Shown here: positions 2,164 through 4,453 of the stretch, one piece after another
Layout of the letters: each line of letters opens with the position of its first letter
Position numbering within the stretch: position 1 is the stretch's first letter
Source of the DNA: a virus
Lineage: Duplodnaviria > Heunggongvirae > Uroviricota > Caudoviricetes
Virus record (IMG/VR): IMGVR_UViG_2547132270_000012
Strand: one strand, 5' to 3'
DNA length: 4,453 nt
The notes under the pieces: model-generated
Database searches by the model: none
What the model saw: only the letters and a program-made list of their open reading frames with translations
What the model was told of the DNA's origin: nothing
Program-made: the position numbers and the translations under genes

Positions 2164-2766
2164 ATGGACAGCATTCAACTGGAAAATATAAGGAAAGAAA
2201 AGCCAGACAACATTTTCATAATTTTAGGAATTATTCTTATTAACCTTTTCCTATTATCATTTCTCTACATTCCCGAAAAATATGATCGTGTAATAACATT
2301 CACCTTCGCACTTTCAATCATATTATTAATTTATCTTGATTCCAGATTGTTAACAAAATCTGGGTATGAACCAACTATTTCAAGAGCATGGGTGATACTG
2401 TTCGGCGCATTCTTTTTTGTTTTCTGGGTATGGAAACGCTACACATGGTTCGGAGATAAAACAAGGATTCTTTTCTGGGTATTATTGTTATCGACAGGCG
2501 TATCTTTTTATTATTCATATAATACAGAGAACAATAAAATGCTTGGTGAAACAGCCTGTGAATTATCAACTCAAATCATGAGCGAACAATACAACCGCCC
2601 CGATATAAAGTGTTCAAGGGTCGTTGAAATTAAGGAAATTGATAATAATTTCTATAAGGCCAGAGCCATATTTAACAACGGCACAACACAAAGCATTACT
2701 ATAGATGTTAGAAAAGAAAATGGACAAGAGATGGTGTATGTAAGCCTAAATCCTTTAGGTAATTGA
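2164..2766 (+). CDS. hypothetical polytopic membrane protein (4 predicted TM helices plus ~80-aa C-terminal globular domain); candidate superinfection-exclusion factor
   Basis: ATG at 2164 preceded by a strong SD, AGGAG (2153-2157), with a 6-nt spacer. 200 aa with four hydrophobic stretches (about residues 17-36, 43-58, 75-90, 102-119) and a polar C-terminal domain (...CELSTQIMSEQYNRPDIKCSRVVEIKEIDNNFYKARAIFNNGTTQSITIDVRKENGQEMVYVSL...). GC is about 33% by hand count over ten 60-nt lines, against about 55% in the adjacent J-like gene. Function is an inference. Confidence 0.75.
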   Translation: MDSIQLENIRKEKPDNIFIILGIILINLFLLSFLYIPEKYDRVITFTFALSIILLIYLDSRLLTKSGYEPTISRAWVILFGAFFFVFWVWKRYTWFGDKTRILFWVLLLSTGVSFYYSYNTENNKMLGETACELSTQIMSEQYNRPDIKCSRVVEIKEIDNNFYKARAIFNNGTTQSITIDVRKENGQEMVYVSLNPLGN

Positions 2767-2785
2767 TCCCCACCCCTTTACAATC

Positions 2786-2811
2786 GCGCCCAATAAAGTA
2801 TGATTGGGCGC
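2786..2811 (+). promoter_or_regulatory. perfect 9-bp stem hairpin (GCGCCCAAT / ATTGGGCGC, 8-nt loop) 20 nt after the membrane-gene stop
   Basis: Arms at 2786-2794 and 2803-2811 are exact reverse complements. No U-tract follows on either strand, so it is not a classic intrinsic terminator; it could be an RNA stability or processing element or a protein-binding palindrome. Confidence 0.4.
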
Positions 2812-2846
2812 ATGAGGCGTCGAAACCTCTTACAAGCGGTACACAA

Positions 2847-2872
2847 CCAACCCCGTTAGTGTTGGATTTTTT
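2847..2872 (+). terminator. weak intrinsic-terminator candidate (5-bp stem CCAAC/GTTGG, 9-nt loop, then A-TTTTTT)
   Basis: Stem at 2847-2851 / 2861-2865 followed by a T6 run at 2867-2872, about 80 nt downstream of the membrane-gene stop. The stem is short, so any termination is probably partial. Confidence 0.3.
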
Positions 2873-2886
2873 ATGCCTGCTATTTA

Positions 2887-2909
2887 GTGATGGCACGATG
2901 TGCGATCAC
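2887..2909. promoter_or_regulatory. 23-bp near-palindrome (GTGATGGCAC-GAT-GTGCGATCAC), candidate operator
   Basis: 10-bp arms match in inverted orientation at 9 of 10 positions with a 3-bp spacer. It lies 13 bp upstream of the structured RNA element and about 130 bp upstream of the antirepressor-like gene. No convincing sigma70 -35/-10 pair could be assigned by eye. Confidence 0.3.
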
Positions 2910-2921
2910 ATCCCCGATCAA

Positions 2922-3002
2922 TGTCGGGAGGGCGACGAATACAACACCCGAAAGGGGAATAAGTCCGCGGTACTTGTAGCCGTTTCGAACCTCCCGACAC
3001 CA
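2922..3002 (+). ncRNA. tRNA-acceptor-like structured RNA element, candidate C4-like antisense/cis-regulatory RNA controlling the downstream antirepressor gene
   Basis: Perfect 10-bp inverted repeat TGTCGGGAGG (2922-2931) / CCTCCCGACA (2990-2999) enclosing 58 nt, followed directly by ACCA, giving an acceptor-stem-plus-NCCA look. It contains an internal CCC-GAAA-GGG tetraloop hairpin (2947-2956). Segment 2973-2989 is reverse-complementary at 14 of 17 positions to 3015-3031, next to the SD of the following gene. There is no canonical D or T arm, so it is not a tRNA. Strand and exact ends are inferred. Confidence 0.45.
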
Positions 3003-3014
3003 CTTTGGTTCTTC

Positions 3015-3034
3015 TTCGAAAAAGATACAAGAGG
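3015..3034 (+). promoter_or_regulatory. predicted target/anti-SD pairing site overlapping the ribosome-binding site of the AntA-like gene
   Basis: TTCGAAAAAGATACAAG (3015-3031) pairs with 2973-2989 as 7 bp + 1 bp + 6 bp. The SD AGAGG is at 3030-3034 and the ATG at 3040. Confidence 0.4.
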
Positions 3035-3039
3035 TTACT

Positions 3040-3609
3040 ATGACCATCCAACTGATTCCCGTTTTCAGCGGAACTATCTCAAACGAAACTATCCTTCTAT
3101 GCAATGCACGTGATTTACACGATTTTCTTGAAGTAGGAAAAGTGTTTGCAGCCTGGATTAACGCTCGCATTGAAGAGTATGGATTCGAAGAAAATAAGGA
3201 TTTTGTAGTTTTTTCCAATTCTGGAAAAAATAGCGTAGGTCGTCGCCGCAAGGACTACCACCTAACCCTGGACACCGCCAAAGAGCTGGCGATGGTTGAG
3301 CGCAACGAAAAAGGCCGCCAGATCCGCCGATACTTTATCGAGTGCGAGAAAAAGCTGCGCGATGCAACTCCAGACCGCAACAAAATCATCCACGGTTCTC
3401 CTCGAACTGTTGTCATCCGGTTGGACGACACCGGAAATGTCATTTATACCGAAACCGTACCGACTGATGCCGTAGTCTGCACACCTGAAAGTTATAAACA
3501 GTGGATGGAAAAATGCGGCTGGCTGGTCATTCGCCAGGAAGAACTACGACATATCACGCTGGACAGACTTTTTGCCGGATATGCTCAAACCGGAACCTGC
3601 GTCCGGTAA
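3040..3609 (+). CDS. AntA/AntB-family phage antirepressor-like protein (N-terminal AntA domain plus uncharacterised ~75-aa C-terminal region)
   Basis: ATG at 3040 with SD AGAGG and a 5-nt spacer; stop TAA at 3607-3609; 189 aa. The N-terminal ~110 aa carry the motif pattern I recall for AntA-type antirepressors (LIPVFSG...NARDLHDFLEVGK.F..WI..RIEEYGF.EN.DF.......DYHLTLDTAKELAMVERNEKGRQIRRYFIECEKKL). The domain call is from memory, not a search. Confidence 0.75.
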   Translation: MTIQLIPVFSGTISNETILLCNARDLHDFLEVGKVFAAWINARIEEYGFEENKDFVVFSNSGKNSVGRRRKDYHLTLDTAKELAMVERNEKGRQIRRYFIECEKKLRDATPDRNKIIHGSPRTVVIRLDDTGNVIYTETVPTDAVVCTPESYKQWMEKCGWLVIRQEELRHITLDRLFAGYAQTGTCVR

Positions 3610-3932
3610 CTGGTTCCGTTAAAAAACACAACATCGATGTTATAGGTGGGGTTCTCTGCCCCATCTACCTTTGAAATGGCCAATGATGCAAAATACCCGG
3701 CAAACTGTTGCTGAACCATGTTCACATAGTAGTCTGGGTAAATCTGCTGCACGATGCACTGCTGCGCAGGAATACCGTAATTCGCGTAAAACGGCGACTC
3801 CCCCAACCCCAGCTTTAACGTCTGAATGAGCGTCGTCAGCCAGCCGTAGGAGAAATCACCGTTGGCGTCAGATTCTACTGCAACCCATTTTTTGTTGCCG
3901 TTCGCGTCGGTGACGCGGCCCCATGTTCTCAT
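3585..3932 (-). CDS. hypothetical protein (115 aa), third gene of the small minus-strand cluster
   Basis: ATG at 3932 with SD GAAAGG and a 7-nt spacer; stop TGA at 3587-3585. GC is about 50% and the sequence is non-repetitive. Its 3' end overlaps the 3' end of the convergent antirepressor-like gene by 25 bp. Function unknown; a weak gp25/GPW-like G-x7-YG motif was noted but not accepted. Confidence 0.6.
   Translation of the reverse strand: MRTWGRVTDANGNKKWVAVESDANGDFSYGWLTTLIQTLKLGLGESPFYANYGIPAQQCIVQQIYPDYYVNMVQQQFAGYFASLAISKVDGAENPTYNIDVVFFNGTSYRTQVPV
3591..3618. other. hairpin (CGGAACC / GGTTCCG, 14-nt loop) at the convergent 3'-end overlap of the antirepressor-like and 115-aa genes
   Basis: 7-bp inverted repeat spanning the TAA stop of the plus-strand gene. 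It is followed on the plus strand by an A-rich tract (TTAAAAAACAC) rather than U-rich, so it is not a canonical terminator in either direction. Confidence 0.3.
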
Positions 3933-3935
3933 ACG

Positions 3936-4100
3936 TCAACCTTTCAAGTAAATTAGGGTGCCGGTAACCAGAGCGGTGCAAATGATCCACGCTACTGGAG
4001 TCAGAATATGCCGAATACCCCGACATACTGCGATTATTCTCGCAGCCTTATCAGCTCCTTTTGGGGTTGTCTCAGCCTTAAAAATCAGTTCGCTATCCAT
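3936..4100 (-). CDS. small hypothetical membrane protein (54 aa; below the ORF-track length cutoff)
   Basis: Hand translation gives ATG at 4100-4098 and TGA at 3938-3936 (MDSELIFKAETTPKGADKAARIIAVCRGIRHILTPVAWIICTALVTGTLIYLKG). SD AAAGG sits 6-7 nt upstream. The ATG overlaps the end of the preceding ORF, and the stop lies 3 nt before the ATG of the 115-aa gene. One C-terminal hydrophobic helix. Coding status rests on the compact arrangement. Confidence 0.4.
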   Translation of the reverse strand: MDSELIFKAETTPKGADKAARIIAVCRGIRHILTPVAWIICTALVTGTLIYLKG

Positions 4101-4287
4101 TTAGAACCTTTATGATCTCTGCGATCCCCGGAAGAGATTTGGCAACTGCAAACCCTCCGATAACTATAAGAACTGCATAAAACATTCTTCTCAGAACCGG
4201 ACTTCTTTCGAGCAATTTTAGAGCTTCCACAATCCAGTCTCCTCCGCTAAAATTAATCACGGAAGACCTCCAAACATACGTAATCAT
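4093..4287 (-). CDS. small hypothetical membrane protein (64 aa from ATG 4287, or 55 aa from GTG 4260)
   Basis: Track ORF; stop TAG at 4095-4093. The ATG at 4287 has a poorly spaced SD, whereas the in-frame GTG at 4260-4258 is preceded by GGAGG with a 6-nt spacer, so the shorter form may be the real one. Hydrophobic C-terminal half (MFYAVLIVIGGFAVAKSLPGIAEII). Confidence 0.4.
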   Translation of the reverse strand: MITYVWRSSVINFSGGDWIVEALKLLERSPVLRRMFYAVLIVIGGFAVAKSLPGIAEIIKVLNG

Positions 4288-4315
4288 CCCTTGCCTTATT
4301 CAAGGTCAGAAACAG

Positions 4316-4347
4316 AAAGCCCCGACTGTTTGCCCAGTCGGGGCTTT
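4316..4347. terminator. strong intrinsic (rho-independent) terminator, probably bidirectional
   Basis: 13-bp perfect stem AAAGCCCCGACTG / CAGTCGGGGCTTT (GC-rich 10-bp core) with a 6-nt loop TTTGCC. U-rich tracts follow on both strands (plus CGCTTTAT; minus TTTCTGTTTCTG). Confidence 0.7.
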
Positions 4348-4433
4348 CGCTTTATGGATGTAATTTAAAGTGAGCCGGTATTAACCCGGATTTGGTTGCT
4401 TCGACGTGATCGTGCTGCCGCCGCTTTGAACGC

Positions 4434-4452
4434 CAGCCACATCGTGGCTGGG
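4434..4452. other. perfect 8-bp stem palindrome (CCAGCCAC-ATC-GTGGCTGG) at the window edge
   Basis: Exact inverted repeat with a 3-nt loop. Context is cut by the window end; all three minus-strand frames are open from the edge for 20-30 codons, so it may lie inside the 3' end of a gene. Confidence 0.3.
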
Positions 4453-4453
4453 G

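Follow-up and report, generated by a model that had tools for sequence, protein, structure and literature searches.

The subject of this analysis is a run of three small open reading frames (ORFs) on the minus strand of a 4,453-nucleotide stretch of tailed-phage DNA (Caudoviricetes; IMG/VR record IMGVR_UViG_2547132270_000012), which is referred to at its full length as the window. Several described systems resemble parts of this locus. The classical moron (Juhala/Hendrix; examples are HK97 gp15 and the lambda genes bor and lom) is flanked by a promoter of its own on the upstream side and by a terminator on the downstream side, and HK97 gp15 as well as T4 Imm and Sp bring about exclusion by acting at the inner membrane on DNA entry or on a host membrane protein. 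In the P22 sar/ant locus, an upstream gene is followed by a hairpin, a leader with its Shine-Dalgarno sequence and the target ORF, and the opposite-strand promoter of the sar antisense RNA lies just inside that ORF; sar base-pairs with the ant ribosome-binding site, and the hairpin at which it ends is in the arc-ant gap. The reference layouts for baseplate genes are V-W-J in P2, with a gpW of exactly 115 amino acids (aa), and gp45-gp46-gp47 in Mu. HokW of prophage Sp5 is a small inner-membrane toxin under antisense control by sokW that assists phage-mediated lysis (PMC8621323). The releasin of Mu, gp25, is an accessory membrane protein, and phage lysis systems exceed the set of holin, endolysin and spanin (PMC9239132). 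P1 LydC and LydD are likewise accessory small membrane proteins of phage lysis (PMC9025707). Hfq-bound prophage small RNAs (sRNAs) of E. coli O157 Sakai have also been published, in a paper that mentions morons (Tree et al. 2014, PMC4104026).

Compared with these systems, the window is best explained by two unrelated components, namely a baseplate gene for a 115-aa protein and, directly upstream of it, a portable cassette in which a terminator-like hairpin and a short leader precede two peptide genes, A and B. A probability of about 0.55 is assigned to this explanation as a whole. The elements concerned are given below in the order in which the minus strand is read.

4381 to 4453, minus strand: 3' end of the baseplate spike/hub gene (V), a bppV homologue; last 24 codons, with the stop codon TAA at 4383-4381.
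4315 to 4348, minus strand: intrinsic-terminator hairpin with a 14-bp stem (9 G-C pairs), a 6-nt loop and a U-rich tail reaching to about 4305.
4289 to 4311, minus strand: leader of 23 nt, TTCTGACCTTGAATAAGGCAAGG, nearly invariant and with a small stem (CCTTG-N7-CAAGG); it forms the 5' boundary of the cassette.
4093 to 4260, minus strand: ORF A, 55 aa, with GTG 4260 behind GGAGG-N6; the N-terminal segment carries the invariant residues EALK..E..VLRRMFY and is followed by one transmembrane helix.
3936 to 4100, minus strand: ORF B, 54 aa, with AAAGG-N6-ATG; after a conserved core, AETTPxGADxAAxIIAxCRGIRHxLTP, come a transmembrane helix and a tail of 2 residues.
3585 to 3932, minus strand: ORF of 115 aa with its start ATG at 3932 (GAAAGG-N7-ATG), 3 nt past the stop codon of ORF B.

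The initial annotation had described three minus-strand ORFs with an overlap, a 3-nt gap, Shine-Dalgarno sequences and convergence on an antirepressor gene, and it proved accurate in every checked detail. It had also found the middle 54-aa ORF at 3936-4100 and one hydrophobic helix in each of the first two products; the hydrophobic stretches span residues 29-47 of A (mean Kyte-Doolittle value 1.9) and residues 32-50 of B (2.0). In both peptides a 25-30-residue N-terminal segment, polar and basic beside the helix, precedes this stretch, and what follows it amounts to 2 aa in B and to a short amphipathic tail of about 8 aa in A. These features characterize A and B as predicted small inner-membrane peptides with a C-terminal transmembrane anchor and a short basic N-terminal segment, which the positive-inside rule would place in the cytoplasm. 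The start of ORF A is best placed at GTG 4260. An alternative in-frame ATG at 4287 would give a product of 64 aa, but it reads ATA in the close relatives L003-L005 and is thus unconserved, while members of the ORF A family begin at the GTG-equivalent position. The start of ORF B overlaps the end of ORF A by 8 nt (ATGGATAG), an arrangement through which B is predicted to be translationally coupled to A.

Substitution patterns argue that both ORFs are genuine genes under purifying selection. Between the window and locus L008, 30 of 126 nt of ORF B differ, and 28 of these differences are synonymous and 2 non-synonymous (non-synonymous proportion, pN, 0.022; synonymous proportion, pS, 0.82). For ORF A, the comparison with locus L032, which represents another genomic context, gave a pN of 0.22 and a pS of 0.71 over the ORF, and 0.07 and 0.67 over its N-terminal 81 nt (27 codons). 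The pN/pS ratios are 0.03 for B and 0.1-0.3 for A. In distant comparisons, with about 30 or more differences, the called frame had the lowest pN and the highest pS among the six frames; near-identical pairs (2-5 differences) are uninformative for this test. The families comprise 20 clusters for A and 25 for B, drawn from E. coli and Salmonella and reaching down to about 55-60% identity, with length and invariant motifs kept. A homologue of A is found between lysozyme and Rz behind the same leader, and a homologue of B stands behind a similar hairpin after the tail-fibre genes of a Salmonella prophage. Neither A nor B has a match in Pfam, PHROGs, NCBIfam or PADLOC, and PGAP calls no gene in this slot in six of six E. 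coli genomes.

Comparison of loci points to a portable cassette, of which the hairpin, the leader, A and B are one copy, placed between V and the 115-aa gene; this gene is called W-like below. A search for the 3' arm of the hairpin joined to the leader found this combination in 1122 of the 5426 complete E. coli genomes, and at least 120 viral contigs contain it too. Among its 131 instances in the examined loci, 109 have an endolysin gene upstream and/or Rz downstream, in lambdoid prophages, and 21 are located between V and the W-like gene. The lysis cassettes of O157:H7, ST131, phage PhiR12_1 and Salmonella phage SPN3UB carry the leader followed by peptide type D (60 aa), E (43 aa), F (50 aa) or C, and hybrid peptide forms (including P0140) are also present. 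Because the large majority of instances (109/131) share that position, the endolysin-Rz gap of lambdoid lysis cassettes is taken as the usual home of the cassette and the window copy as a transplanted one. The GC content of the cassette is slightly below that of its flanks (0.42-0.49 versus 0.49-0.53).

The content of the slot between V and the W-like gene varies among prophages that are otherwise near-identical. It consists of A and B in the window, L003 and L004; of type C (45 aa, ending in ...GQIRWW) in phage Rac-SA53, phage pPE4 and L007, and also in L009 from Yersinia similis; of a divergent A' in L006; of A, B, C' and C in L005; and of a B with a long N-terminus, C' and C in L008. The same hairpin and leader open the slot in all of these except L008, the leader of L006 being slightly degenerate. 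The comparison indicates that peptide genes are swapped mosaic-wise behind a constant terminator-plus-leader. The sister types C, D, F and E, which stand behind the same leader, correspond to PHROGs 6632, 1115, 4493 and 4906, all of unknown function, whereas the types found in the window, A and B, have no entry in PHROGs, Pfam or NCBIfam.

Three further observations concern the boundaries and the usual site of the cassette. A C-terminal ...IRWW with the start of the downstream gene directly after it recurs in types C and F and in hybrids (L001, L039, L149 and P0140), and it may mark the point at which the cassette recombines on its 3' side or serve as a coupling signal. In prophages Sp10, Sp11 and Sp12 of O157:H7 Sakai (L164, L166 and L168), the endolysin-Rz gap is filled by an unrelated 189-aa antirepressor and a 48-aa type-E-like membrane peptide, with neither hairpin nor leader; this content suggests that the gap is a general hot spot and that E-type peptides can occur without the leader. 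In Rac-SA53 (L167, KU052037.1; 22191-24628), heat-labile enterotoxin IIa genes come directly after the endolysin gene, which is the position of the lambdoid cassette, and no spanin is annotated.

The strong terminator that the initial annotation placed upstream of the ORFs was recovered as the hairpin at 4348-4315 by a terminator scan and by folding, with a folding z-score of -4.8. Across 17 variants, 95.8% of stem cells are paired and four stem pairs show compensatory double changes, and the wobbles are of the U.G kind on the ORF strand. A conserved A-tract upstream makes the hairpin potentially bidirectional. Taken from the alignment, this pattern argues for a genuine RNA element on the ORF strand that has the form of an intrinsic terminator. 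About 20-55 nt past the leader, L032-type and type-F cassettes carry a longer junction variant, GAGAAATTATGGGTAGGGAGGTnnTTTCCCTGTG. As read from the sequence of this variant, AGGGA can pair with TCCCT to form a small hairpin, in which the Shine-Dalgarno sequence belonging to the first ORF would be hidden.

The 115-aa gene is a conserved core gene of the baseplate module and stands outside the peptide cassette. It has 724 homologues in Enterobacterales and beyond, none of them with a Pfam domain, and its product belongs to PHROG 7986 (E = 3e-64), a family annotated only as hypothetical or of unknown function. The initial annotation could assign no family to any of the three proteins, and profile searches added none for A and B and only this PHROG of unknown function for the 115-aa protein. 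In 17 of 23 distant loci, fetched from other species to examine this adjacency, a V-like ORF of 155-263 aa ends within 16 nt of the start of the 115-aa homologue or overlaps it, and no small ORF separates the two genes. In phage records the gene always stands between a spike or 'puncturing' protein and baseplate J. In the window, the end of the spike gene reads ...SGGSTITSKQPNPG* and matches Rac-SA53 bppV as well as a PGAP 'phage baseplate protein'. The 115-aa gene thus has both the position (between V and J) and the size (about 110-145 aa) of a W gene, and its product has no hydrophobic helix.

Structure comparison points weakly in the same direction. The predicted alpha/beta fold of the 115-aa protein retrieves IraD, 2ia7, TssE, XM1 gp15 and T4 gp25; in Foldseek searches a T4 baseplate chain ranks first in the PDB and proteins annotated as GpW/Gp25 rank high in BFVD, with scores that are not significant. 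A stretch of the protein, 'L..L..GE.P....YG', can be aligned to the part of P2 gpW that carries the gp25 motif. The resemblance to P2 gpW, T4 gp25 and TssE of the type VI secretion system (PF04965) lies in the location between V and J and in the length of 115 aa that it shares with P2 gpW; the difference is that the 115-aa family has no detectable sequence match to PF04965 and that structural scores are modest. Several results weigh against the assignment. The Z-scores are at most 6.2 and the Foldseek E-values at least 0.01; PF04965 (GPW_gp25) gave no match for the window protein and matched 0 of 42 family members at E up to 10; and hhalign of the family against P2 gpW and Mu gp46 was not significant, with a probability of about 0.1%. 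A profile search of the PDB with the family found nothing. On the strength of synteny, size and a weak fold match, it is nevertheless quite probable that the 115-aa protein is a wedge/sheath-initiator protein in the gpW/gp25 position next to baseplate J. It holds that position and probably works alike, and membership in the gpW/gp25 family is not claimed. The gene is ordinary in role and comes from a family that no profile library names.

These data bear on two readings of the three ORFs that differ from a baseplate gene with an unrelated peptide cassette. The initial annotation regarded the trio as a possible conserved unit, and as a single functional module it would be, for example, a holin-like or toxin/immunity trio, as its tight co-oriented packing with an 8-nt overlap and a 3-nt gap might suggest. 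This reading is contradicted by the comparative data and is very improbable: the 115-aa gene adjoins V without any small ORF in 17 of the 23 distant relatives, a different peptide stands beside it in Rac-SA53, homologues of A and B occur without it in lysis cassettes and in the Salmonella tail-fibre region, and its product lacks a hydrophobic helix and occupies the gpW position. The small ORFs travel with the hairpin and the leader instead. Homology of the 115-aa protein to a structural protein, combined with absence of the small ORFs from relatives, had been named as evidence against the trio; the absence was found, and the homology takes the form of synteny and a weak fold resemblance, sequence homology not being detectable. 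The trio is rejected as a unit because of both. A related suggestion, that the cluster is the remnant of a structural operon, fails on gene order, since V, cassette, W-like gene, the inserted antirepressor gene, J and the next tail gene match the order of the complete phage Rac-SA53, which continues to the tail fibres. It is equally improbable that A and B are chance untranslated frames in an intergenic regulatory spacer. PGAP calls no gene there in the six E. coli genomes and no Pfam, NCBIfam or PHROGs family matches either product, as such a reading would have it, but the strong synonymous excess falls in exactly the called frames, length and frame are kept at 55-70% amino-acid identity in E. 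coli and Salmonella, and the Shine-Dalgarno sequences are good.

A scan of the minus strand found no sense promoter in the space from the hairpin to the ORF; two candidates, TTGAAT-N19-TATGTT and TTCTGA-N17-GATGAT, were rejected as out of spacing range or unconserved. The hairpin and the start codon are no more than about 30 nt apart in types C and D, and in all cases the peptide genes are co-oriented with and tightly coupled to the flanking late genes (Rz or the 115-aa gene). Since a terminator lies directly upstream and there is neither room nor a match for a sense promoter, it is rather probable that A and B are expressed only from the Q-antiterminated late transcript. The peptides would then be made solely by read-through of Q-modified RNA polymerase, late after induction and together with the lysis and tail genes. 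Expression confined to this phase would argue against expression in the lysogen and against a role in exclusion.

An additional, putative layer of control lies on the opposite strand, where two features were predicted.

4226 to 4253, plus strand: sigma-70-like promoter match TCCACA-16-TAAAAT opposite ORF A, with its -10 element over codons 3-4 (hypothesis).
4260 to 4358, plus strand: predicted cis-antisense RNA of about 100 nt, which would run over the start of ORF A, its Shine-Dalgarno sequence and the leader and end at the hairpin (hypothetical).

The predicted RNA folds with a z-score of -5.0. An opposite-strand match with a -10 element starting 4-6 nt inside the first ORF was present in 19 of 19 sequence groups, with scores of 8-10 of 12; the background of such matches in 2.67 Mb of sequence is 4.6e-4 per nt at 9 or more of 12 and 5.6e-5 per nt at 10 or more of 12. 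The matches for the individual cassette types are as follows.

Type F: TGGACA-18-TATACT
Type D: TAGTCA-18-TATACT
Type A: TCCACA-16-TAAAAT
Type A': TTCACA-16-TAAAAT
Type C: TGcTAAAAT

Locus L008, which has a different leader, carries TCCAAA-17-TAGAAT (8 of 12) about 8 nt inside its first ORF, and the Salmonella copy, L033, has no promoter match at this register. The A-tract upstream of the hairpin would provide the antisense transcript with a U-tail; both flanking genes run in the same direction. Transcribed constitutively from an antisense promoter in the first codons and terminated at the same hairpin, an RNA of 75-100 nt would be complementary to the leader, the Shine-Dalgarno sequence and the start codon and would silence leaky translation in the lysogen. 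By analogy with P22 sar/ant and with type I toxin-antitoxin loci, such a sar-like RNA silencing the first ORF is possible, with odds somewhat short of even. The cassette repeats the P22 order of upstream gene, hairpin, leader with Shine-Dalgarno sequence and target ORF, with a promoter-like element in place of the opposite-strand promoter just inside the ORF; its predicted RNA, like sar, would consist of a 5' stem-loop and a terminator, and its terminator stem is ~80% identical to the sar consensus. The systems differ in that sar targets an antirepressor and the cassette RNA, itself a prediction, would target small membrane peptides.

Several points count against an antisense RNA. The Rfam model of sar (RF00262) matches 4290-4351 on the plus strand with only 24 bits, below its gathering score of 43, and gave no match at E <=1 in 11 related loci. 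The promoter scores reach only 8-10 of 12 and the element was spotted post hoc; one -10 element is shared by types A and C and another by D and F, which leaves about two independent observations. The N-terminal codons could be conserved for protein reasons instead of for a promoter, and the U.G wobbles of the hairpin become A.C mismatches in an antisense RNA and so favour a hairpin on the sense strand. The Rfam model ohsC likewise had a sub-threshold match on the hairpin that was not recovered in the 11 related loci. The published Sakai sRNAs EcOnc10, EcOnc11, EcOnc12, EcOnc33 and EcOnc51 do not inform the question, as none lies in the endolysin-Rz gap and the inspected prophages Sp10-Sp12 have no leader there (PMC4104026). 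EcOnc11 and EcOnc33 could be located directly, at positions downstream of Rz and, near PR', at the moron site. EcOnc10 and EcOnc12 were placed downstream of Rz only by analogy (matching offsets), and EcOnc51 appears upstream of the Sp12 holin by its table coordinates.

A tentative guess at function, with HokW of Sp5 as precedent, is that the peptides are membrane-active late products with a lysis or toxin-like accessory role; tight silencing, late expression, a membrane anchor and a home in lysis cassettes are what point to it. The target of the peptides would be the cytoplasmic membrane as the cycle closes, and a depolarization, for instance, would tune or assist lysis by holin and endolysin. 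A fuller and somewhat more doubtful version describes an undescribed, widespread, mobile late-operon cassette of small membrane toxins that would be doubly gated, by antitermination and by a sar-like RNA, and would serve as accessory lysis triggers, in effect a hybrid of type I toxin-antitoxin and lysis systems. The initial suggestion of a small membrane-acting or toxin-like module survives to the extent that A and B are genuine single-helix peptide genes for which both options are live; the 115-aa gene does not form part of it. In a search for holin and antiholin features, A and B matched no Pfam or PHROG holin. They also lack the holin architecture, in which a charged cytoplasmic tail ends the protein, since just 2 residues in B and about 8 in A come after the helix; and the window copy lies in a baseplate operon, although 109 of 131 related cassettes lie in lysis cassettes. 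No functional study was found in the literature on the small ORFs between endolysin and Rz, on their protein accessions or on Rac-SA53.

The described lysis accessories resemble the cassette in part. With hokW-sokW it shares a small hydrophobic membrane peptide, a prophage location, a putative antisense RNA and a plausible role at the time of lysis; it differs in having no peptide promoter of its own, tandem unrelated peptides, an embedding in the late operon and no Hok homology. Its peptides resemble Mu releasin and P1 LydC and LydD in being membrane-tethered, with a short cytoplasmic domain, almost no periplasmic part and (as a prediction for the cassette) late expression, and most copies of the cassette lie within a few genes of an endolysin. 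Releasin has an N-terminal transmembrane domain, in contrast to the C-terminal anchor of the cassette peptides, which are moreover much shorter than these proteins and have no match to DUF2730 or another family, and the endolysin of the window phage is not of the signal-arrest-release (SAR) type. A SAR-endolysin-specific, releasin-like role was rejected as a general explanation because the endolysin of Rac-SA53 is cytoplasmic.

Some observations weigh against a role in lysis. No single lysis partner is obvious, since the endolysin of Rac-SA53 is cytoplasmic and its holins are canonical, while the lambdoid prophages that host the cassette carry SAR endolysins together with pinholins. Mosaicism is high and as many as four peptides are stacked, a pattern that is seen more typically in conflict genes, such as those for exclusion or defence, than in lysis regulators.

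Given this mosaic diversity, exclusion or defence is a serious rival to a lysis-related function. A and B would in that case be lysogenic-conversion or superinfection-exclusion morons, expressed by the resident prophage, that block phage DNA entry or modulate a host membrane protein. Small single-helix membrane peptides inserted between genes that adjoin in relatives would suit this role, as would their hypervariable, mosaic and stackable content, typical of conflict genes, and a neighbouring slot that holds other accessory genes (restriction endonuclease, lysozyme inhibitor). The regulatory layout is what makes it unlikely overall: no sense promoter lies between hairpin and ORFs, the spacing in types C and D being too short for one, and the conserved, sense-selected terminator is not downstream of the genes but directly upstream, a position in which it would block expression in a lysogen. 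The cassette is also always co-oriented with late genes and tightly coupled to them, and PADLOC gave no match. The same features separate it from the classical moron, with which it shares the status of extra DNA between genes adjacent in relatives (V and the 115-aa gene adjoin in the 17 of 23 distant loci) and from which it differs in its upstream terminator, the lack of a sense promoter in the scan and the start of the next gene 3 nt past B.

Less probable again is a true type I toxin-antitoxin module for addiction or abortive infection that would work independently of the phage late programme, with a stable toxin mRNA and an unstable antisense RNA. Hydrophobic peptides of fewer than 60 aa (55 in A, 54 in B) and a leader that is both structured and conserved accord with it. 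So do the promoter-like element, which keeps its register on the opposite strand, the terminator, which may work in both directions, and the weak resemblance to the sar and ohsC RNAs; such modules are also common in prophages, with hok genes nearby in L033 and Rac-SA53. What such a module would need is a promoter for the toxin mRNA, and none is present, while the terminator would halt transcripts from upstream. It also speaks against such a module that one leader can be followed by as many as four different peptide genes in tandem, that the ORFs are translationally coupled to essential downstream late genes (Rz or the 115-aa gene) and that no known type I toxin or antitoxin family gave a match. 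Late expression from a portable cassette beside an unrelated baseplate gene is accordingly preferred to both readings.

The phage that carries this cassette is a Rac-SA53-like prophage with lambdoid regulation and a contractile tail. Rac-SA53 itself is 95.6% identical to the window and has a lambdoid-type organization, in which the Q antiterminator is followed by a single long late operon that holds toxin morons, holins, endolysin, terminase, head and tail genes. Its tail operon runs from the tape-measure and hub genes through bppV, a 45-aa ORF and the 115-aa ORF to J, a 208-aa protein and the tail fibres, with ant and other genes on the opposite strand between the 115-aa ORF and J. The window region is found in 93 of 5426 complete E. 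coli genomes, with more than 80% of the region covered in just 28. One further gene of the window adjoins the cluster.

3040 to 3609, plus strand: ant, a convergent antirepressor gene of the AntA/AntB type (Pfam AntA, E = 3.9e-27).

This gene, which overlaps the 3' end of the 115-aa ORF by 25 nt, was inserted separately, on the stretch from the W-like gene to J. Derivation of the window ant from the same slot in Shiga toxin (Stx) phages was ruled out, as the relatives of this ant lie near xis/int. Directly upstream of its start at 3040, positions 2923-3006 on the plus strand match Rfam sRNA-Xcc1 (RF02221) with 78 bits (gathering score 53, E = 1e-13); the matching segment may belong to the ant insertion, as its 5' leader or as an sRNA. 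Further along, 2164-2766 on the plus strand encodes a 200-aa multi-helix membrane protein (PHROG 12486, unknown function) with a weak GtrC-like match. With a GC content of 0.31-0.37 and a strand opposite to that of the tail genes, this stretch looks like a foreign insert between the W-like gene and J. The junction of these two genes (about 2180-3610) is a second variable slot in loci L003-L008, where its content is a type I restriction endonuclease in L006, a lysozyme inhibitor of the LprI family in L005 and L007, variants of Ant or, in L003, a deletion that removes J.

Two ORFs of the window on the minus strand, at 910-2178 and 300-1034, probably have starts that are set too far upstream. Comparison with Rac-SA53 would put the start of J at ATG 2136 of the window (408 aa) and that of the next gene at ATG 926 (208 aa); the match of PHROG 8212 to the 244-aa ORF is likewise confined to residues 37-244. 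Among the related records, 'Actinobacillus phage vB_Apl-pPE4' (L002, PP818812.1) is 94-98% identical to the E. coli prophage here at the DNA and protein level, and its stated host looks doubtful. Genomes labelled DH5alpha (4.83 Mb; L008, NZ_CP026085.1) and KO11FL contain a Rac-SA53-like prophage with a three-peptide slot. The DH5alpha-labelled genome of 4.83 Mb is larger than expected for a K-12 derivative.

The two small genes of the window thus represent a widespread, unannotated and uncharacterized cassette with an unusual regulatory layout. Annotation misses the A and B genes, even though the cassette is present in prophage lysis or tail operons of about one-fifth of sequenced E. coli, including O157:H7 and ST131. 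If the assignment of the 115-aa protein is true, its family would be a sequence-divergent branch of the gp25/W sheath initiators that Pfam does not recognize. If the antisense RNA exists, it would constitute a new family of phage regulatory RNAs, with a promoter that constrains the N-terminal codons of its own target. Should the peptides modulate the timing of lysis or the integrity of the membrane, they would affect phage release and, in Stx prophages, possibly the release of toxin as well.

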